The position numbers were made by a program, and so were the translations under genes. Below, in pieces: positions 23,497 to 40,248 of a DNA stretch of 64,000 bases; the stretch's first letter is position 1; each line of letters starts with the position of its first letter. Under the pieces are notes generated by a model that saw nothing but the letters and a program-made list of their open reading frames with translations, searched no databases and was not told where the DNA came from. The DNA comes from an uncultured bacterium (GTDB taxonomy: Bacteria > Patescibacteriota > Patescibacteriia > Magasanikbacterales > UBA922): contig CALMAY010000038.1 in assembly GCA_937861125.1 (NCBI GenBank), positions 254,921 to 318,920 of the forward strand, written 5' to 3'.

Positions 23497-25101
23497 CTAA
23501 CTATTTAAAAATTCCACAAATTCATCTGTATGAGCTGGGGCTAATTTACCCTCTTTTAATTGCCGAAGAATATCTAACGGCTTCTTAAATTTTTCATTAT
23601 TAGAGGTCTTATCAAAATTAACATACGTTTCGAGATCCACTTCAAAACTCTTAACACTTGAAGTAAATTTGTTGCAGGCATTTACAATCGCCTCATTCCA
23701 TTCTTCGTGTTTTGGAGTTTTATTATTGTCTTTATCAAACATGACTGAATGTCTTATACCAAATTGTTGACACAATCTCATAAAATACGGGATATTACTT
23801 TTGTTTCCACACTCAACAATATATAAATTTTTATCTAAATTATTTTCTTTTAGTAGATAATTTAAAAAAGCCTTGTCTGATGCCCCCTCAACAAGGACTA
23901 CTTTATCCACAAAAAACATAGTATTCCTATCTGGATTTAGCCACAAAATAAAATCAAAATCTGGAGCTTGAATTTGAAGTTCTCCCAAGAATTCTTCACT
24001 CGCACTATATTTAGTTGTCACACCAGAATTTTTGACAAATCTAGAAATACACTTCAGTGAATCATTTTTAGAACTAATTAAATTGGGTGAATGGGTGCAG
24101 ACTAAAACCTGACTACTTTCAGTTTTTGCTAGCTTTTCTAGATTTTTTAAAAGCTTACATTCTTGGTCATAGTGCAGTAAAGCCTCCGGCTCTTCATAGA
24201 GGAGAAGGGTCATATCACCATTAAATTTCTTCTTATCTGATTTCATTTTTTTTCCTTCAATCTCAGCCCACAACAAAAGCAAATTATTAACAATTGAGCG
24301 CTGCGCACCAGACCCCAAATTCATAGGGTCTTCCTCTATATTTGTCTCGTTAGAAATCAAGTTTAATTTTGCACCTGATAAAATTATATCCTCTGGTGAA
24401 GGTGGCGAAATTGAAATCTGTGATTTCAAACCCCAATCACTAAGTCTTAAAGATAAATTCTCCTCAATCTCATTTACACTCTTAAACTCACCAGTAGCTT
24501 TTACTGGACTCTTTAAATCATTAGTAAACTCTTTAGTATCTTGGACAAGTTTATTCCAAGATGGTAAGTCAGTTAATGTTTCTGTTAAAATTCTACTAAC
24601 CAATTTTGAAAAAAGTGATGATTTAGTTTTTTTAAGTTCTTCACCAAGTTCTTTTACAGCTGGAATATAAATCACCGTACCAAGTTTTCCCACAGCAACA
24701 TTTTTAGCACCAAAAAACTCTTCTTCACTTTCCTTAACATCTCCTGTTTGGTTATCTTTTATATAACCATGAACCTCCCCTCTTAAAGAATCTGTCTTAT
24801 ATCTTTTTACCACTCTTAAAATATTTCCATCAAGTTTATATTGTTCTGGCACTTGAGAGAATTCATTTGCACTTAGTTGATATTCAATCAATATTTCTAT
24901 TGGCTGATGAGCAGCATCAGAACGAAGAAAATCTTCTAATTTTACATCATAATCTCCATAAAACGCTCTTATTGCATGCATTACAGATGATTTACCCGCA
25001 TTATTTTGCCCAACACAAGTCCACACATCATCCAAAGGACCAGAAATAGTCACATCTTTAAGCGAGCGAAAATTAGTAATTTTAATAGTTTTTATTTTCA
25101 T
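23497..25101 (-). CDS. OLD-family nuclease (ABC/AAA-type ATPase + C-terminal Toprim)
   Basis: Walker A GQNNAGKSS, signature-like LGSGAQRS, Walker B LLLYEEPEALLH and H-loop VCTHSP. The C-terminal Toprim has VVLVEGASDKAF and MFDKDNN (DxD). It overlaps the upstream methylase gene by 4 nt. Confidence 0.8.
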   Translation of the reverse strand: MKIKTIKITNFRSLKDVTISGPLDDVWTCVGQNNAGKSSVMHAIRAFYGDYDVKLEDFLRSDAAHQPIEILIEYQLSANEFSQVPEQYKLDGNILRVVKRYKTDSLRGEVHGYIKDNQTGDVKESEEEFFGAKNVAVGKLGTVIYIPAVKELGEELKKTKSSLFSKLVSRILTETLTDLPSWNKLVQDTKEFTNDLKSPVKATGEFKSVNEIEENLSLRLSDWGLKSQISISPPSPEDIILSGAKLNLISNETNIEEDPMNLGSGAQRSIVNNLLLLWAEIEGKKMKSDKKKFNGDMTLLLYEEPEALLHYDQECKLLKNLEKLAKTESSQVLVCTHSPNLISSKNDSLKCISRFVKNSGVTTKYSASEEFLGELQIQAPDFDFILWLNPDRNTMFFVDKVVLVEGASDKAFLNYLLKENNLDKNLYIVECGNKSNIPYFMRLCQQFGIRHSVMFDKDNNKTPKHEEWNEAIVNACNKFTSSVKSFEVDLETYVNFDKTSNNEKFKKPLDILRQLKEGKLAPAHTDEFVEFLNS

Positions 25102-25859
25102 ACTATTTTTTGAAACACAAATAGATGCTCATGCATAATAAGCAAAAAGTTGCTTTCCTGCGACCGTTTTACCCAAAAACCAGTTGCCTTGCAGTTATGT
25201 TGGTGTTTAATAATATCCTCTCTCAAACTGAAGCCAGACTTCAAAAAACGCTCCATTACCTTAAATGCAAGAGGTTGGTACATCTTGTTTCGTCTCGTGT
25301 CTCCCATAAGCACCGCACAATACTTTCCAGGCTTGAGCGTGCGATATAGTTCCCCTGCTACTTTTTCCATCTCATCACAAAACGCATCAATATCATGTAT
25401 GTTTGAAAGGTCGTTTTTTAACTTACCTTCACTATATTTGATAATATCAGCGTATGGCGGATGTATGATAATTAAATCAGCACTCTCCTCAGGCATCTTT
25501 TTCAAATCACGCGCATCCCACAAATATAACTTGTGCCAAGATTTATTTTTTACAGGAAAATCAAGACACTTTTTTGTTCGCTCAAGTGCTTTTTTGTTTA
25601 CATCAGAACAAATACTATTTCGATTCAAAATCTTTGCCTCAATCGCAGTCGTACCACCTCCCACCATCGGATCAAATACAACATCCTTTTCTTTTGAGTA
25701 CCTCAAAATAAGATTACGAACCACTTCTGGAGACCAATTCCCCCTCCAGTCAGACGTGTGTGTCGCCCATTTTCCACGACGCGGAAAAGACCAGACTGTT
25801 GTACATTCTAGATCAAACTGTTCGGGGTGAAGTTTTAGTTCTTTTATAAAAGACATCAC
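25098..25859 (-). CDS. SAM-dependent DNA methyltransferase (amino-MTase with FDPMVGGGTT motif I followed by IIHPPY motif IV)
   Basis: Motif I VVFDPMVGGGTTAIEA, then motif IV LIIIHPPYADI about 70 aa later. It has 4-nt overlaps with both flanking genes. Confidence 0.75.
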   Translation of the reverse strand: MMSFIKELKLHPEQFDLECTTVWSFPRRGKWATHTSDWRGNWSPEVVRNLILRYSKEKDVVFDPMVGGGTTAIEAKILNRNSICSDVNKKALERTKKCLDFPVKNKSWHKLYLWDARDLKKMPEESADLIIIHPPYADIIKYSEGKLKNDLSNIHDIDAFCDEMEKVAGELYRTLKPGKYCAVLMGDTRRNKMYQPLAFKVMERFLKSGFSLREDIIKHQHNCKATGFWVKRSQESNFLLIMHEHLFVFQKIV

Positions 25860-26476
25860 TTTGCAATTTCAAAAATTTTTGCGACTAATTGAGGACGAGC
25901 GTAAAAAGCACGGGTTGTTGAATTTTTCGATCCCTTTGTTCTTGCTTGTATCCACTTTCCATCTCTTCCTGTCAAAGCTTCAAATCCTTGGGTTTTTAAT
26001 TTATTACGTATAAAATCATAATCAGCTTTAATCTCCATAATCAAATCATCTGTTTCTGCAAAATCAAGACTAACAACATCGATAATTTCAGCTTTATCAG
26101 CATTTTTCCCATGCCAAGCAACTGCACAAAAAACAATAGTTTTTAATTTAGCCCAACAATGACTACTAAAAAAATCTTCTTCAAGTAGTTGTTTCTGGTT
26201 AAGCATCGTAATCGCCATTGTTTCTTTTGGTTTAAGCTTGCCTTTTCTATCATAATTGAAACTAACTGATTTCAACTCATAAGTAAGACCGTTTGGAGCT
26301 TTTGAATTATTATTAGTCAATCCCGCAAGTCTTTCAAGAACAAGACCTTTCCAACCTTTATTTTGTTTTCCAGTCTCAAAGGTCGTAATTTTATATTGGA
26401 TAGCCAATTCTCGCAGATCTTGACCTATATATTTTTTAAGATTTTCAATTGCTTTCGCACGAGTAATTATATTCAT
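25856..26476 (-). CDS. MutH/Sau3AI-fold (GATC-type) restriction endonuclease
   Basis: Aligns by eye along its length to E. coli MutH: KGWKGLVLERLAG ~ KGWIGVLLEIWLG, TYELKSV ~ GVELKTI (E-x-K), GKWIQARTKG ~ GEYLQIRPKA, RAFYARPQL ~ RGFYLKKNF. Confidence 0.7.
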   Translation of the reverse strand: MNIITRAKAIENLKKYIGQDLRELAIQYKITTFETGKQNKGWKGLVLERLAGLTNNNSKAPNGLTYELKSVSFNYDRKGKLKPKETMAITMLNQKQLLEEDFFSSHCWAKLKTIVFCAVAWHGKNADKAEIIDVVSLDFAETDDLIMEIKADYDFIRNKLKTQGFEALTGRDGKWIQARTKGSKNSTTRAFYARPQLVAKIFEIAK

Positions 26477-26481
26477 AATTT

Positions 26482-27459
26482 TTAATAATTAGTCACCAAA
26501 ACTTCAAAAACTTTTCCTCTTTTACTTGCGTTAGAGTTAATTGCTCTCCCAGCCTGCACCTTGTTAATTTTTACCTTTTTATCTTTTATTTCAGAATATA
26601 TTTCATTGATAAATGGTGTATCTGAGTTTGAAAGCATAACAAAACAACCACGCTTGTGTAGTTCTACAAAAGTATCTCGAAGTTCAATCTGTTCTTTATC
26701 CAAAAAAACATCTTTAGTGTACGAAGTAAATGATGCCGTTTTACTGACAGGATAGTAAGGTGGATCGAAATATATAAAATCTCCTTTTTTTGCCTTTTTT
26801 AACACTTCTTTATAATCCTGATGTTTAATTTCTACTTTTGCAAGTGATAGTGATACTTTTCTCAAGTTAACAGCGTCACAAATAGACGGATTGTTATAAG
26901 ATCCAAAAGGCACATTGAACTCCCCTTTTCCATTAACACGATACAATCCGTTAAAGCATGTACGATTGAGATAAATAAACCGGGCAGCAATTTGTAAATC
27001 ACTTAATTTTTCTATTTTCTTGGCGCGTATTTTGAGAAAAAAATCTTTATCGTATTTATACGTCTTAAGAAGTTTAATGAGAGATTCTACATTATCTCGT
27101 ATAACGATATATGTTGTTACCAACTCTAGATTCATATCAGAAAGTACAGCTTTTTTTGGAAGAAGATCAAAAAAAACAGCACCGCCTCCGACAAATGGTT
27201 CAAAATATGTATCTTTATTTGGGTCAAATTCATCTGGCGGATACAGACCCATACTACTAAACTGTTTCAATAACTGTCTTTTTCCCCCGACCCATTTTAC
27301 AAATGGCTTAGGTCTATCAACCACAATCTTTTCAACGTCAACCATCTCTTTTGGCTCTGGTGCCAAATCAACAGCTCGCTGTGCAAATATAAAATTAACA
27401 CCAAATTGATTTTGAATCTGAAGAACTTTTTCTGCTGTTGTCATATGTTTGAAATACAA
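26482..27459 (-). CDS. Dam-family (D12 class) N6-adenine DNA methyltransferase
   Basis: FVKWVGGKRQLL, motif I FEPFVGGGAVFF and motif IV FIYFDPPYYP. The start could alternatively be the ATG at 27444. Confidence 0.88.
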   Translation of the reverse strand: MYFKHMTTAEKVLQIQNQFGVNFIFAQRAVDLAPEPKEMVDVEKIVVDRPKPFVKWVGGKRQLLKQFSSMGLYPPDEFDPNKDTYFEPFVGGGAVFFDLLPKKAVLSDMNLELVTTYIVIRDNVESLIKLLKTYKYDKDFFLKIRAKKIEKLSDLQIAARFIYLNRTCFNGLYRVNGKGEFNVPFGSYNNPSICDAVNLRKVSLSLAKVEIKHQDYKEVLKKAKKGDFIYFDPPYYPVSKTASFTSYTKDVFLDKEQIELRDTFVELHKRGCFVMLSNSDTPFINEIYSEIKDKKVKINKVQAGRAINSNASKRGKVFEVLVTNY

Positions 27460-27466
27460 AAGTATT

Positions 27467-27766
27467 TTACACCAAATACCTCAACCGATCCACCTCAGAC
27501 ACACCCAATCGCTCATTGATCATAGAGACAATCTCTGCCTGACGCAGACGAATCTCACTGGCAGCGATAGAGCTCGCACAGGTGACGGTGAGTGTACGGT
27601 TTTTGACATACAGCGGTTTGACGTGCTCTGCGAGTCCCGCTGGGAGGATGGAGGTGATCACATCAGTAGCGATATCAATAGCCGACGCAGCCACAACACC
27701 TCGCATGAGTGGCGAAGCGTCTTGCATGCGTTGTTTGAGTGAGTCACTGAGAGAGCTGAGGGTCAT
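27467..27766 (-). CDS. DUF721/DciA-like protein
   Basis: About 100 aa with the DUF721 pattern (VKPLYVKNRTLTVTCASSIAASEIRLRQAEIVSMINERLG). I chose the ATG at 27766; the track start is a TTG. Confidence 0.6.
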   Translation of the reverse strand: MTLSSLSDSLKQRMQDASPLMRGVVAASAIDIATDVITSILPAGLAEHVKPLYVKNRTLTVTCASSIAASEIRLRQAEIVSMINERLGVSEVDRLRYLV

Positions 27767-27830
27767 ACTATGGATAGAGTACCACGAGACGGATGCGAAA
27801 GACAAGGAAAATATACGGTGTGGATAACTA

Positions 27831-27859
27831 TTGACTTTTATATAAAAACGTGGTATATT
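27831..27859 (+). promoter_or_regulatory. strong sigma70-type promoter with extended -10
   Basis: TTGACT - 17 nt - TATATT with TGg immediately upstream of the -10 (TGgTATATT). Confidence 0.6.
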
Positions 27860-27865
27860 CTATTT

Positions 27866-27927
27866 GATCGTAAGATCACTAACTTTGTTGCTTAGAGCCT
27901 CCCGCAAGGGAGCCTCTTTTGCTTTTT
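27866..27927 (+). ncRNA. candidate ~60-nt small RNA, cis-antisense to the 3' end of the NYN gene
   Basis: It begins about 7 nt after the promoter -10. It ends in a 10-bp hairpin AGAGCCTCCC-GCAA-GGGAGCCTCT (one mismatch) followed by TTTTGCTTTTT. There is no plus-strand ORF. Confidence 0.45.
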
Positions 27928-28667
27928 ATACCTATCTCTCGATACCAACAAATAAAATCATTGATTTTTTGAATATCAAAAATGAGAAGACCTTTACTAC
28001 TCAAACCACCCAATTCTCGCGAAATCTTCCCTGCAGTAGCGAATAACACAACCTTTTTTCCCATAGACATCAATTTTTGGATAGTGTCTGCAAAATCACT
28101 ATCCCCACTCCACAACACAAACACGTCAGCTCTACCCCGCTCACAATCCAACGACATATCAGTGCCGATTTCAACATCAAAATTACATTTTCTATCCTCA
28201 ATGTAGAGTTCTCCTTGTTTATTCATTTCAGAGAATTTGCCATTGAGGTATTCAACTGTCTCACCACTATATTTACGCAATAAAGAATGCTTGATAAACG
28301 GACTGAGTAGCGCAGTGGACTGAGGCGATGAACGTCCCACGTCTATTGAAAATCTCATTATTTTAACTGGTTTTGTTCTAAACAAATATCCGTACTGCTC
28401 TATATCCTTTTTTTCTTTTTCCGAACGCTCATCCCCTTCTAAATAACCACTATAAAAATGAACCGCCTGAACGGTACTAAACGAGTCAAAAAATTGCTTT
28501 AAGCGCTTAATGTCAACGTGCCACCCCAGTTTTGTGCTCCACGGACGAACATTTGCATAATCAATATACATACGAGTAGTACCAGAAAACATATTCTCTA
28601 GCTCTTGTATTACCCGTGTTTTTTCTTTTGCAATATCAGCAATCTTTTGTGTTTTTGGTACAAACAT
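27879..28667 (-). CDS. NYN/LabA-like (PIN-like) domain protein, putative RNase
   Basis: MYIDYANV... N-terminal acidic motif and VFVLWSGDSDFADTIQKLMSMGKKVVLF, characteristic of the NYN/LabA family. Confidence 0.72.
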   Translation of the reverse strand: MFVPKTQKIADIAKEKTRVIQELENMFSGTTRMYIDYANVRPWSTKLGWHVDIKRLKQFFDSFSTVQAVHFYSGYLEGDERSEKEKKDIEQYGYLFRTKPVKIMRFSIDVGRSSPQSTALLSPFIKHSLLRKYSGETVEYLNGKFSEMNKQGELYIEDRKCNFDVEIGTDMSLDCERGRADVFVLWSGDSDFADTIQKLMSMGKKVVLFATAGKISRELGGLSSKGLLIFDIQKINDFICWYREIGIKSKRGSLAGGSKQQS

Positions 28668-28676
28668 ATTGAGACG

Positions 28677-28886
28677 TTAGATCTTTTGATACCTATACTG
28701 ATATCGAATGTTATCCGCAAAAAATTGACCTGGTGAGACTGCTTGGATAAACTGCAAATATACAAACTCAGGTACATCAAAATACTGGTAACTATCACCA
28801 GACACAAACTCAACTATCAACAAAGAATTTTCTTTGTCGTACTGGGCAGTAGATACATGAGACGAGTTGAGAGTTATTTTTTGCAT
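28677..28886 (-). CDS. KTSC domain protein
   Basis: 69 aa; the pattern SSHVSTAQYDKENSLLIVEFVSGDSYQYFDVPEFVYLQFIQAVSPGQFF matches the KTSC domain layout. Confidence 0.7.
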   Translation of the reverse strand: MQKITLNSSHVSTAQYDKENSLLIVEFVSGDSYQYFDVPEFVYLQFIQAVSPGQFFADNIRYQYRYQKI

Positions 28887-29071: not shown

Positions 29072-31996
29072 TTACGGCCGTCCATCAGGCCCAAAGACCT
29101 GCGACCAATCCGTCGCATAGATTTCATCAATCAAGCGAATCATCTTTTCGCGCAGTTTTTCTATATCTTTGTCGGCACCCAGGAAGCTCTGACTGCTTTG
29201 ATCATTGAGATAGTAGTAGGTCAGTGCACCGACATCTCCATACGCCTGATAGCTACGGAGTGAACTCACTGCCATTTGATACAGCAGGAGCTGTTCTTTG
29301 TCATGGGCTTCGAGTTTTTTCTTTGGTGAACCAGTCTTGTAGTCCATGATCTCAAGCAGTCCGTCTTCGCGTCTATCGATACGGTCAATTTTTCCAGTCA
29401 CCGTGTATTCACCGAGCTTGATCTTGAACCCGCTCTCGAGAAACAGTGGAATGCGCCAGGTACCATCGTGCTTTTTGTAGTATTCACTCACGATCTCTTT
29501 GCCTTTGTGATAGTACTCTTCGCGCTGTTCTCGACTCTCATACCAATCAGGAATCCACGACTGCTCAAAGAGCGACATCATCTCCTCCACTGTTGGAACA
29601 CTCAGTCCCTCCGTCTTGGTCACTGGTGCAGTGTCAAAGAGTGAACTCTGTGAGATACTGTTGCGTTCACTGAGGAGTTCATAAAACCGCTGGAGCGTGA
29701 GGTGCATACTCTGCCCAAAACTAAAATGTGGACTCCCCTTTTGTGGGATTTTGAGAATGCGCTCGATCTTGTACTGATACGGATCTTCTTCAAAGAGATG
29801 GAGCTGTGAAAATGAAAATGTTTTTGGGAGTTCGTACTGCACTGCCCCTTCTTCACCGCGAACGATATTGACGTGCTGGACTTTGTGGAGCAGCTGTGAC
29901 TCGGTCGGGATCTCGAGTCCGACACTGATAGTCTCAACGTTGAGTTCACTGACAAACTGACTGATCTTTTTTTCACGCACACCACCATAACTTTTGGCAC
30001 TCGTCAGTGTCAGAGTGTGACGTGCACGGGTACAGGCGACGTAGCACAAACGTCGTTCCTCTTCGATATGTGCATCACCACTTGGCAGCATTTCTTTGAC
30101 GAGCCCATCTGGGAGTGCGATCGCGTCCCCGCGTCGACGAGATGGGAATCGGTCAGAGACCATGTTGACGACAAAGACATGATCAAACTCAAGTCCTTTG
30201 GATCCGTGTACGGTCATGATACGAACTGCTCCCGCTGGTGCTTCCTCTTTTGGCAGCGCACCCTCGTCCCCTGATTCGAGCAGTGTTTCGAAATATGCGA
30301 GGAACTGTCGGACATCACACTGTGGATGGTTGACCTCATATTCGTTCATGCGATCCAGAAATGCGCGCAGATGTGCGACAGCACGGACCGCCATCGCGTT
30401 GCCCCGTGCATCTTCGTCTGTGAGATAGGTAAAATAGCCACTGTTCTCAAAAAAGTGATACAGCACCGTCGTCGGACTCTCACTCTTGGCTTCGCTCATA
30501 CCTGCGTGAATCAGTGAGAGGAGTTTGTCACACACAGCAATCGCCTCACCAGTCATTCCACTCTGCGCGACCTGCTTTAGTGCCTCGTAGTATGAGACTG
30601 CTTTTTGTTTAGCAAATGATGCAAAGCTCGTTATATCGTGTTCACTGAGTCCAAACATCGGCAGACGCAGGAGCCGATACACCGCATTGGACTCACGGTG
30701 ATTATCAAGCAACTGTAGATAGGCAATGGTATCGAGCACAATACTCTGACGAAACAATCCACTCGAGGCAGAGTAAAAAAATGGAATCCCACGCTTGCTG
30801 AGCGCCTCCATAAAGCCTTCGGCATGATTGTTGGCACGCACGAGAATTGCAAAGCTATCCCACTCACAATTCTCTGCGGTGCGAATCTCAATCATCCGCT
30901 CCACCACCCCACGCACCTCATCCTCGCCAGTCGGATACGCAACATGCGTTACGACAGACTGCTTAGTGCTTAGTACTGATTGCGTACCTGCTGACACTAG
31001 CCGTTTGTCAATCCCCAGCTTCACTTCCAACCGATCTGGATTGTTGTGCTGCACCAGCGCATACGACGCATCCAAAATTTCCTGACGTGAACGATAGTTT
31101 TCATTGAGCACCACACTCACTGCATCGGGATAGTCTTCTTTGAATCGCAGGATGTTGCTGACACTCGCACCACGAAAGGCGTAGATACTCTGATCATCGT
31201 CGCCCACAACGCATAATTTGCCACTCTGCCCAACGATATGCTTGGTGAGGATATACTGAGCCCAGTTGACGTCCTGAAACTCGTCTACGAGCACATACTT
31301 GAACCGCTTTTGAAGAATTGCGGCGACACGTGGACGCTCGGTGAGGAGCTTGACGCTGTAATACATGAGATCACCAAAATCCAGTGCATTGTGTTTGAGG
31401 AGAAGTTGATTGTATTGACGATAGACTGCGGCGAGCTCCAGCAGTCGTGTTTGTTCATCTTTTGATTCTGCCTCAGCGTCCGCATCAATCGCCATGTTTT
31501 GTGCATAGGTCAGATACTGTTCAGGAGAGATCAATTCATCTTTACATTTGAGGAAATGACGAATCAAGCCATCGAGATGTCGAGATGGGTTACCAATTGG
31601 ACGATAGTATGAAAGACCAATATCATAGACCGATTCACGCAGCATCAACCAGCTATCAATCTCGGTATAGAGTTTGAAACGATTTGGGATCCCCACATCA
31701 AGTCCAAACTCCTCGAGCAGCTCCTGTGCAAAGGCATGAAACGTACTGATGTGCATCTGCGCGTACCCAGTATCAATGAGACTATCCACGCGCTCCTGCA
31801 TCTCAAACGCCGCGGCATCCGTAAAGGTAAGCGCGAGGATCTCCTCAGGTTTCGCCAATCCGTTTTTGACCAAGTAGGCGATCTTTTCGGTGATCACCGT
31901 CGTCTTGCCCGTCCCCGCTCCGGCGACAATCAACAAATGACCGTCGCTATATTGGACGGCCTTTTGTTGGGATGAGTTGAGTGCTCGTTCCCCCAT
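29072..31996 (-). CDS. UvrD/PcrA-family SF1 helicase fused to a C-terminal PD-(D/E)XK (RecB/AddB-like) nuclease domain
   Basis: Helicase motifs AGAGTGKTT, VDEFQD, GDDDQSIYAFRGA, TVHGSKGLEF and VACTRAR. The C-terminus has GKIDRID...LEIMDYKTG (D..D/ExK). Confidence 0.85.
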   Translation of the reverse strand: MGERALNSSQQKAVQYSDGHLLIVAGAGTGKTTVITEKIAYLVKNGLAKPEEILALTFTDAAAFEMQERVDSLIDTGYAQMHISTFHAFAQELLEEFGLDVGIPNRFKLYTEIDSWLMLRESVYDIGLSYYRPIGNPSRHLDGLIRHFLKCKDELISPEQYLTYAQNMAIDADAEAESKDEQTRLLELAAVYRQYNQLLLKHNALDFGDLMYYSVKLLTERPRVAAILQKRFKYVLVDEFQDVNWAQYILTKHIVGQSGKLCVVGDDDQSIYAFRGASVSNILRFKEDYPDAVSVVLNENYRSRQEILDASYALVQHNNPDRLEVKLGIDKRLVSAGTQSVLSTKQSVVTHVAYPTGEDEVRGVVERMIEIRTAENCEWDSFAILVRANNHAEGFMEALSKRGIPFFYSASSGLFRQSIVLDTIAYLQLLDNHRESNAVYRLLRLPMFGLSEHDITSFASFAKQKAVSYYEALKQVAQSGMTGEAIAVCDKLLSLIHAGMSEAKSESPTTVLYHFFENSGYFTYLTDEDARGNAMAVRAVAHLRAFLDRMNEYEVNHPQCDVRQFLAYFETLLESGDEGALPKEEAPAGAVRIMTVHGSKGLEFDHVFVVNMVSDRFPSRRRGDAIALPDGLVKEMLPSGDAHIEEERRLCYVACTRARHTLTLTSAKSYGGVREKKISQFVSELNVETISVGLEIPTESQLLHKVQHVNIVRGEEGAVQYELPKTFSFSQLHLFEEDPYQYKIERILKIPQKGSPHFSFGQSMHLTLQRFYELLSERNSISQSSLFDTAPVTKTEGLSVPTVEEMMSLFEQSWIPDWYESREQREEYYHKGKEIVSEYYKKHDGTWRIPLFLESGFKIKLGEYTVTGKIDRIDRREDGLLEIMDYKTGSPKKKLEAHDKEQLLLYQMAVSSLRSYQAYGDVGALTYYYLNDQSSQSFLGADKDIEKLREKMIRLIDEIYATDWSQVFGPDGRP

Positions 31997-33310: not shown

Positions 33311-33338
33311 CAAAAGAAAAGATGTGGATAAATCCACA
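33311..33338 (-). terminator. intrinsic terminator after atpC
   Basis: The minus strand has a TGTGGA/TCCACA stem followed by TCTTTTCTTTT just after the atpC stop. Confidence 0.6.
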
Positions 33339-40138: not shown

Positions 40139-40248
40139 ATACGTACACAAAAAGGATAACACCCAAAACCCAATCCGTCAATGCTTTTGAAGGCACTCAT
40201 CTGTGGATAATTTAGCTTATTACAGCCAAATTTATAGAAAAATGAAAT

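Follow-up and report, generated by a model that had tools for sequence, protein, structure and literature searches.

The txpA/RatA and bsrG/SR4 pairs of Bacillus subtilis and the par locus (Fst/RNA II) of Enterococcus faecalis are type I toxin–antitoxin loci, in which the antitoxins are antisense RNAs overlapping at the 3′ end. The SymE/SymR locus of Escherichia coli lies in the hsd/mcr/mrr restriction island, and the anticodon nuclease PrrC is embedded in the EcoprrI Type I restriction–modification (R-M) locus, where the R-M proteins restrain it. To our knowledge, almost no regulatory RNAs have been described in the Patescibacteria (candidate phyla radiation, CPR). In type III toxin–antitoxin systems, the RNA is thought to keep an endoribonuclease inactive (PMC5772629, PMC12373285). 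Here we analyse a 64,000-nucleotide stretch of DNA from an uncultured bacterium of the Patescibacteriota (contig CALMAY010000038.1, positions 254,921–318,920; the whole stretch is called the window). It contains a predicted small RNA (sRNA) gene that lies antisense to the 3′ end of a gene for a predicted nuclease with a NYN (PIN-like) domain. A model that saw only the letters and the open reading frames (ORFs), called the sequence-only reading here, had proposed a plus-strand sRNA unit of about 60 nt at this place. The conserved promoter, the covarying helices and the strand-specific G·U pairs described below strongly support this, and they define a new predicted family of structured sRNAs paired with a NYN nuclease, which matches neither the type I nor the type III definition.

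Our preferred reading, to which we give a probability of about 0.5, is that the window carries a predicted sRNA gene of an undescribed structured family and that this RNA would exert antitoxin-like negative control over NYN. The features of the locus are as follows.

27819–27827, plus strand: DnaA-box 9-mer TGTGGATAA, a predicted site found by sequence reading, ending 3 nt 5′ of the −35 element
27831–27836, plus strand: −35 hexamer TTGACT of the sRNA promoter, found by sequence reading and promoter scan
27851–27859, plus strand: extended −10 element TGgTATATT (TG at 27851–52, hexamer at 27854–59), after a 17-nt spacer from the −35
27866–27927, plus strand: predicted sRNA of about 62 nt, with ends placed according to the promoter (5′) and the U-tract (3′)
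27865–27878, plus strand: P1, a 5-bp hairpin UGAUC-GUAA-GAUCA at the predicted 5′ end, found by folding
27879–27889, plus strand: single-stranded linker, window copy CUAACUUUGUU, near-invariant columns in the family alignments
27890–27922, plus strand: P2, a long stem with a GCAA loop and a U-rich internal loop, found by folding, RNAalifold and covariation
27923–27927, plus strand: U5 tail, a putative intrinsic-terminator U-tract that would act together with UUUU at 27917–27920
27879–28667, minus strand: NYN (LabA-like) nuclease gene, 262 aa (Pfam PF01936, 1.9e-13)
28677–28886, minus strand: KTSC-domain gene, 69 aa (Pfam PF13619, 4.2e-19), 9 nt upstream of NYN
27467–27805, minus strand: dciA-like gene (Pfam DciA, 6.3e-13), next downstream of NYN

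The NYN protein has 1737 relatives at E ≤ 0.001 in the protein database, and those with a named source are Patescibacteria. The best 120 listed share at least 62% identity with it. For the comparison of loci we used the best 80 of 201 genome relatives, together with 46 metagenome loci that were retrieved by a 20-base DNA pattern taken from the RNA only; such a pattern selects intact RNAs. A profile hidden Markov model (HMM) found the element in 79 of the 80 genome loci, and the remaining locus was cut by the end of its contig. In all 79 evaluable loci the element is single-copy and antisense at the NYN 3′ end. Conservation of promoter and hairpin next to NYN homologues, which the sequence-only reading had proposed to check, is described below. 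All 46 loci found through the RNA pattern are true family members by HMM and covariance model, and nearly all adjoin NYN. The convergent, overlapping or abutting arrangement with NYN is kept in all of the roughly 125 loci, and no relocation was seen. Against the window, the nhmmer family profile matches the copy with E = 7.7e-13, and the covariance model (R1) gives 70.2 bits (E = 9e-17, match 27861–27928) and finds it as the sole copy in the 64 kb. This conservation in other genomes puts the element far beyond chance.

The element overlaps the coding sequence of NYN, whose ORF ends with ..KRGSLAGGSKQQS. The linker contains the complement of the NYN stop codon (27879–27881), and the last approximately 19 codons (27882–27938) are a read-through over the sRNA gene. 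The tails of many relatives (..ERKRDPxxGAPKL) align with ..KSKRGSLAGGSKQQS of the window, and other relatives terminate just before it; the element sequence is present both inside the NYN ORF and beyond an earlier stop codon. Among 79 loci, NYN stops at a conserved TAG in the linker in 44, in the P2 loop in 10 and at the RNA 3′ end in 21. The ORF enters the RNA gene by at least 19 nt in about 58 of the 79, and in the others it ends at the RNA 3′ end. In the AlphaFold2 (AF2) model of NYN, tail residues 244–262 have a predicted local distance difference test (pLDDT) score below 50. Since the element is conserved regardless of where the ORF ends and the tail is predicted to be disordered, we conclude that it is conserved as RNA and not as protein. 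A role of the C-terminal tail as a protein feature was considered and rejected on these grounds, and the tail is best described, from the alignments and the model, as a by-product of the RNA gene.

The family layout on the plus strand is a P1 hairpin of 5 bp, a linker of about 12 nt, P2 and a U-rich tail. The linker (CUAAUUCUAGA / ACUAAUUCUAGA) is near-invariant, and P2 has up to 14 pairs (GCUU-RGGGGCCCC / GGGGUCCCY-UUUGC). Two GATC sites fall within P1 of the window copy, and a link to a GATC-specific system is conceivable. In the MAFFT alignment 86.4% of the cells are paired and 14 of 18 pairs show changes in both partners; the model-based alignment gives 88.2% and 16 of 18, with both-side changes in all five pairs of P1 and in 11 of the 13 of P2. 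None of 500 shuffles reached any of the observed covariation measures, and controls in which the partner was slid paired in only 29–61% of the cells. RNAalifold recovered P2 unaided, including the closing pairs. The closest relative of the window NYN (locus L146) carries compensatory A–U to G–C changes in P2. In a subfamily with GCUAA...UUUGUGC, the tandem U·U mismatches become A–U and U·G pairs, which confirms the proximal part of the "T-run" as stem. The compensatory changes thus go beyond the controls, and the alignments identify a conserved structured RNA of a new family.

The strand of the RNA could be read from the same alignment. Cells with G·U outnumber those with A·C by 161 to 18, and standard pairs account for 88.2% on the plus strand vs 78.2% on the other strand. 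A conserved wobble in P2 is G·U in 68 of 78 sequences. The P1 loop is of the GNRA type in 51 of 79 sequences, and the GNRA or UUCG loops are read as such only on the plus strand. The excess of G·U, the conserved wobble and the GNRA loops together place the RNA on the plus strand of the window, and an RNA on the NYN strand was rejected by the pair counts and loop types. Past the closing GC, the family has K-U-U-Y-U over five nucleotides and then A, and U reaches 85% at the second and third of these positions. In the family the tract is interrupted (YUUUGC-KUUYU), and in most loci 3–6 of the 8 nt that follow the closing GC are U; it is a clean U5 in the window and weaker in many members.

The window copy shows most of what the sequence-only reading had described, with corrections to the hairpin. 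The GC-rich hairpin of 10 bp at 27894–27917 is at its place, but this core (AGAGCCTCCC-GCAA-GGGAGCCTCT) has nine pairs and one C·C mismatch (27898/27913) and not 10 perfect pairs. It is followed by TTTTGCTTTTT, which does run to 27927 as a T-run but is not wholly a tail: P2 reaches the closing pairs G27890–C27922 and C27891–G27921, which are invariant in the family, so that the proximal part of the run belongs to the stem. This extension and the P1 hairpin at 27865–27878 had been missed. The P2 stem and the UUUUGCUUUUU that follows it give the GC-rich stem and U-tract of a predicted intrinsic terminator. As had been read correctly, no U-tail follows the hairpin on the minus strand. The absence of plus-strand genes for more than 20 kb on either side was also correct, the nearest long, non-overlapping plus-strand ORFs being about 25 kb from the element in either direction; between approximately 3.1 and 53.6 kb of the window, nearly all long ORFs are on the minus strand.

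A predicted sigma-70 promoter, as expected of an independent sRNA gene, precedes the element and is conserved in the homologues. Across 113 distinct loci the −35 follows TTGAC(T/A), its first five positions being T in 111, T in 101, G in 105, A in 86 and C in 74 loci, and in the −10 consensus TAnnnT the A at position 2 and the T at position 6 occur in all 113. The spacer is 16–18 nt, 63 loci have the TG extension, and the distance from the end of the −10 to P1 is fixed at about 7 nt in 79. The mean score is 9.4 of 12 consensus matches. The window promoter (TTGACT, 17-nt spacer, TGgTATATT) was found exactly as the sequence-only reading had placed it and scores 10 of 12 plus the TG. TAGAAT in the linker raised the possibility of a sense promoter for the downstream gene inside the RNA gene; it comes without a conserved −35 or TG, and we judged such a promoter unlikely.

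In 43 of the 113 loci a DnaA box with at most one mismatch adjoins the −35 or overlaps with it; in 21 loci the box is perfect. The box usually ends 1–3 nt upstream of the −35, or it overlaps the −35 as TG-TGGACA-A. In 787 kb of fetched DNA there are 38 perfect boxes, of which 25 lie within 130 nt of the sRNA. At 27819–27827 the window has a perfect match to the 9-mer TTATCCACA, already pointed out from the letters, and the closest relative (L146, 71% identity in NYN) has the same box, −35 and extended −10. In total there are five perfect DnaA boxes in the 64 kb of the window vs 0.87 expected. Further perfect boxes were observed at 40202 (plus strand), 23903 (minus) and 49109 (minus), the last about 22 nt upstream of an extended −10 TGgTATACT. 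A palindromic pair of overlapping DnaA-box-like 9-mers (TGTGGATAAATCCACA) occupies 33323–33338 (plus strand) in an intergenic gap. A replication origin at the DnaA box and dciA was rejected; the box is a lone one without a cluster, and the gene orientation around it is uniform.

Taken within the window alone, the promoter and terminator features are not beyond chance. Within 8 kb there are 13 promoter-like sites vs 18.3 expected from shuffles, and 8 terminator-like sites vs 5.9. The plus-strand fold of the element has an energy of −20.1 kcal mol−1 (z = −3.3) and the minus-strand fold −19.1 kcal mol−1 (z = −2.5). The hairpin occurs once in the window, and a repeated or mobile hairpin was rejected. 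A scan of the 64 kb with the Rfam 15 covariance models gave no match at the gathering threshold, and in a permissive scan of 27700–28100 no score exceeded 20 bits, which is noise below the thresholds. With a typical family member (L014), the best Rfam match was Phe_leader at 25 bits, below its threshold of 55. No tRNA was found in a tRNA/tmRNA scan of the window. In the literature searched, we found neither this RNA nor a KTSC–NYN module described, and no NYN protein that had earlier been linked to a dedicated sRNA.

The partner protein has the profile, fold and acidic residues of a NYN (LabA-like) nuclease, and we predict it to be one. The NYN domain scores 51.6 bits against PF01936 (cut-off 24.2). 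A Foldseek search with the AF2 model returned 2QIP as the top PDB match (E = 2.7e-6, probability 1.00); no PDB relatives were found at the sequence level. Residues D36, N39, D164, E166, D170, D189 and D191 are invariant in 24 homologues. The subfamily has a helical insertion of about 60 residues and an N-terminal helical extension, and the NYN proteins of the loci diverge to 51% identity. A bacterial NYN protein has been described as a sequence-nonspecific, Mn-dependent single-stranded RNase (bioRxiv 10.1101/2024.04.08.588522), and PIN-like toxins cluster with R-M systems (PMC5499597). NCBIfam has no match for NYN or KTSC. Membership of a known defence system was rejected, as the PADLOC matches are weak only (NYN 1.2e-9 and HEC-09).

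The KTSC domain is regarded as nucleic-acid-binding (PMC7824862, PMC9503650). A KTSC gene (69–71 aa) lies about 11 nt upstream of NYN in 42 of the 80 genome loci, in 34 of the 46 metagenome loci and in the window. The two genes are probably co-transcribed in the window, and their spacing and recurrence make KTSC–NYN a predicted conserved two-gene operon in the clade closest to it.

Outside this unit the neighbours vary. The downstream side holds 57 clusters among 75 ORFs and the upstream side 61 among 76, so that NYN plus RNA is the conserved unit. The neighbours are enriched in R-M genes: among 140 flanking ORFs we counted 14 ResIII, 7 HsdS and 7 methyltransferases (four N6_N4 methyltransferases and three HsdM), with GmrSD, RhuM and HNH as other neighbours. 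In locus L023 (696–6559) the order is Mod-KTSC-NYN-(RNA)-Res with gaps of a few bases. The module lies between or beside mod and res of Type III R-M systems in L023, L040 and L146 (3–4453), and in each the genes are only a few bases apart. In L146, NYN and the sRNA come without KTSC in the module and Res follows directly. At the Type III loci the res start codon is 12–20 nt past the sRNA promoter and DnaA box.

In the window the gene after the module is the dciA-like gene, called from a TTG at 27805, 13 nt past the DnaA box, with an alternative in-frame ATG at 27766 (MTLSSLSD..). Downstream of dciA is a D12-class adenine methyltransferase (26482–27459, minus strand). It belongs to an R-M/defence cluster (23497–27459, minus) with a MutH/Sau3AI-like endonuclease (25856–26476), an N6_N4 methyltransferase (25098–25859) and, at 23497–25101 (minus), an OLD-family ATPase–TOPRIM nuclease (PADLOC Old, 5.9e-54). 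At 29072–31996 (minus) lies a 974-aa UvrD-type helicase fused to a C-terminal PD-(D/E)XK nuclease (AddA/PcrA-like). Its PADLOC GajB matches are strong but probably reflect generic UvrD similarity, as the OLD/GajA-like gene does not adjoin it and lies 4 kb off.

One metagenome-assembled genome (MAG; CAIPHR01) has two modules, L040 and L056, with 65% and 57% identity to the window NYN, and such a pair of diverged modules suggests accessory, multi-copy behaviour. Some carriers are labelled as belonging to other groups: L074 and L076 as Acidobacteriota, L052 and L073 as Omnitrophota, and L061 as Clostridia. L076 is on a 3.0-Mb contig, and the labels of several binned MAGs look unreliable. These carriers hint at horizontal transfer. 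Carriage by phages was rejected for IMG/VR, in which all 18 pattern matches are chance matches with neither NYN nor RNA; IMG/VR has only one weak NYN relative. A tblastn search of plasmid and phage collections gave no matches.

Linkage of the RNA to NYN is not symmetric. Among the loci examined, an intact NYN without the RNA was never seen, and the RNA without an intact NYN exists. Most of the 46 loci found through the RNA have a full-length NYN. In 7 of the 46, NYN is reduced to its last 21–90 codons or is absent, with the RNA and usually the promoter intact (L105, L107, L117, L121, L131, L138 and L139); in L121 the NYN remnant is fused to an unrelated ORF. An asymmetry of this kind is typical of toxin–antitoxin pairs and is an indirect hint at such a pair here.

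On our preferred reading of antitoxin-like control, the sigma-70 promoter, often flanked by a DnaA box, would drive a plus-strand RNA that starts at the 5′ GNRA hairpin. NYN transcription would run into the RNA gene. No terminator lies between NYN and the RNA gene, so that every NYN message would contain the full complement of the sRNA, in keeping with the complementarity between RNA and mRNA of type I systems. The sRNA could form a duplex with the 3′ end of the NYN message, and processing, decay or transcriptional interference by polymerase collision would then leave less NYN. The near-invariant linker, closing pairs and wobble exceed the needs of an antisense RNA, which suggests recognition by protein; the invariant linker, the stem base and the G·U wobble may allow NYN and/or KTSC to recognise the RNA directly as well.

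Several points weigh against this reading. Both the sRNA transcript and the toxicity of NYN are predictions, and LabA-like NYN proteins are without an established function (PMC5499597). The rule that NYN always has the RNA comes from the best 80 of 201 relatives only. The orphan RNAs could equally mean a function of the RNA that is independent of NYN, and two of the seven (L107 and L117) show incipient decay of P2. Loci differ in where the stop codon falls with respect to the duplex, and cleavage of the duplex would therefore have no uniform effect on translation. Pairing of the linker with the translation-start regions of NYN or KTSC found no support (mean z +0.8 and +0.2), and antisense pairing alone does not explain the near-invariant linker and stem base. 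The window copy is itself a divergent member of the family, with 70.2 bits, three changes in the linker and a C·C in place of the family G·U.

The most far-reaching alternative sees KTSC–NYN–sRNA as a new class of RNA-gated nuclease of the toxin–antitoxin or abortive-infection kind, which we hold as a tentative proposal only. The RNA would pair with the mRNA and also bind NYN or KTSC, with the G·U stem and the invariant linker as contacts, its promoter would be tied to DnaA, and a disturbance of replication or transcription would free the RNase. The trigger could be, for example, a phage or the loss of the flanking R-M genes, whereupon the RNA would fall and the RNase would be released. The module would be widespread in Patescibacteria and, placed within R-M operons, would provide either a second line of defence or an addiction device. 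It is also possible that the element governs read-through into whichever gene follows. The sequence-only reading had suggested that it may simply insulate dciA; as a general function this does not hold, since dciA follows the module only in this window. In the broader form, which we consider unlikely, the convergent promoter and hairpin would act as an operon insulator or valve that tunes KTSC–NYN transcription into the next gene (res, dciA and others), by collision of RNA polymerases and antisense-directed processing of the polycistronic message, with the DnaA box as an extra regulator or roadblock. The downstream gene is co-directional with NYN in 53 of 70 loci, and 18 of these 53 begin at most 70 nt from the sRNA 5′ end, inside or just past the sRNA promoter, where there is no room for a promoter of their own; in the window and the closest relative the start codon is 12–13 nt past the DnaA box. 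The position between mod and res in Type III systems would suit such a valve, as uncoupling of R and M expression is a known need, and the EcoRI system has an antisense RNA (PMC3141266). However, 17 of 70 loci have a next gene of opposite orientation and many downstream genes are more than 100 nt away, and the RNA is equally conserved there. Neither the invariant linker nor the conserved G·U would be required for insulation, and the RNA stays with NYN, whichever gene comes next.

The same invariant parts would be explained if the RNA worked in trans, in a ribonucleoprotein with NYN (and KTSC), as a cofactor, scaffold, decoy or substrate; it might, for example, direct or gate the nuclease against foreign or cellular RNA, and the overlap with NYN would then be tight packing. 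The linker, closing pairs and G·U stay near-invariant while NYN diverges to 51%, which is typical of RNAs recognised by proteins. The nucleic-acid-binding character ascribed to KTSC and the survival of orphan RNA copies without NYN fit as well. We nevertheless regard a purely trans-acting role as doubtful. Convergent overlap in all of the roughly 125 loci argues that the cis geometry matters, an invariant "guide" implies a single conserved target and none was identified, and KTSC is missing from about half of the loci. Least probable by far is that there is no independent RNA, and that the element is a DNA-level site (for recombination or attachment, or an operator) or a structure at the 3′ end of the NYN mRNA. 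The element does contain short palindromes (two GATC, TCTAGA, AGCT and GGCC) and borders variable, R-M-rich flanks, and the minus-strand fold is fairly stable by the energy given above. Both forms are at odds with the G·U excess and better pairing of the plus strand, with loops that are correct on that strand only, and with a conserved promoter that points into the element at a fixed spacing. In addition, P1 covaries and its GATC is not obligatory, and the hairpin on the NYN strand is without a U-tail.

The result is an RNA family described by its promoter, by about 125 aligned sequences with a consensus structure, and by a covariance model that has been calibrated. Its link to one NYN family, and to KTSC in roughly half of the loci, offers a testable handle on the role of the nuclease. 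The annotation of hundreds of NYN proteins can be corrected, since their C-terminal "tail" is a translated RNA gene and not functional protein. If the RNA is indeed an antitoxin or gate, an RNA-controlled system based on NYN would be added to the repertoire of toxin–antitoxin and defence systems, and the recurrent insert between mod and res would be explained.

The toxin–antitoxin-like control that the sequence-only reading had raised fits the strict linkage, the orphan RNAs and the R-M context, but a formal type I or type III class does not apply. The likeness to txpA/RatA, bsrG/SR4 and par lies in the layout: an sRNA, here a predicted one, with its own promoter and terminator runs towards a potentially harmful gene and is complementary to the 3′ end of its message. 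Type I loci are likewise compact modules in accessory regions and can be multi-copy. Their toxins are small, usually hydrophobic peptides of approximately 30–60 aa, whereas the putative toxin here is a NYN nuclease of about 250 aa (across the family, a soluble NYN-fold protein of 245–276 aa). The RNAs of these loci are not known to be conserved in sequence and structure across phyla, in contrast to the invariant linker and stem base and the DnaA box at the promoter in this family.

With the type III systems (ToxIN and AbiF-like; PMC5772629, PMC12373285), the module shares an endoribonuclease (here a predicted one), a dedicated structured RNA and a defence context. In type III systems the antitoxin consists of tandem repeats that precede the toxin gene on its own strand and are processed by a toxin of the ToxN/AbiQ fold, whereas this RNA is a single copy with its own promoter on the opposite strand, downstream of a NYN-fold protein. 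Binding or inhibition of the NYN protein by the RNA, as in type III, is suggested only by the invariant linker and stem base. SymE/SymR (PMC1891008) is similar in that a cis-encoded antisense sRNA represses a nuclease-like toxin gene; there, SymR covers the 5′ end and ribosome-binding site of symE, SymE has an AbrB/MazE-like fold, and control is by LexA and the SOS response with no DnaA box. PrrC offers a parallel in setting, a latent RNase gene amid R-M genes that would fit a back-up defence logic, here as Mod-KTSC-NYN-Res or beside HsdS, although PrrC has no RNA partner and a different fold. The protein partner itself belongs to the LabA-like NYN proteins (PF01936; 2QIP) by its profile, its fold and its invariant acidic residues.

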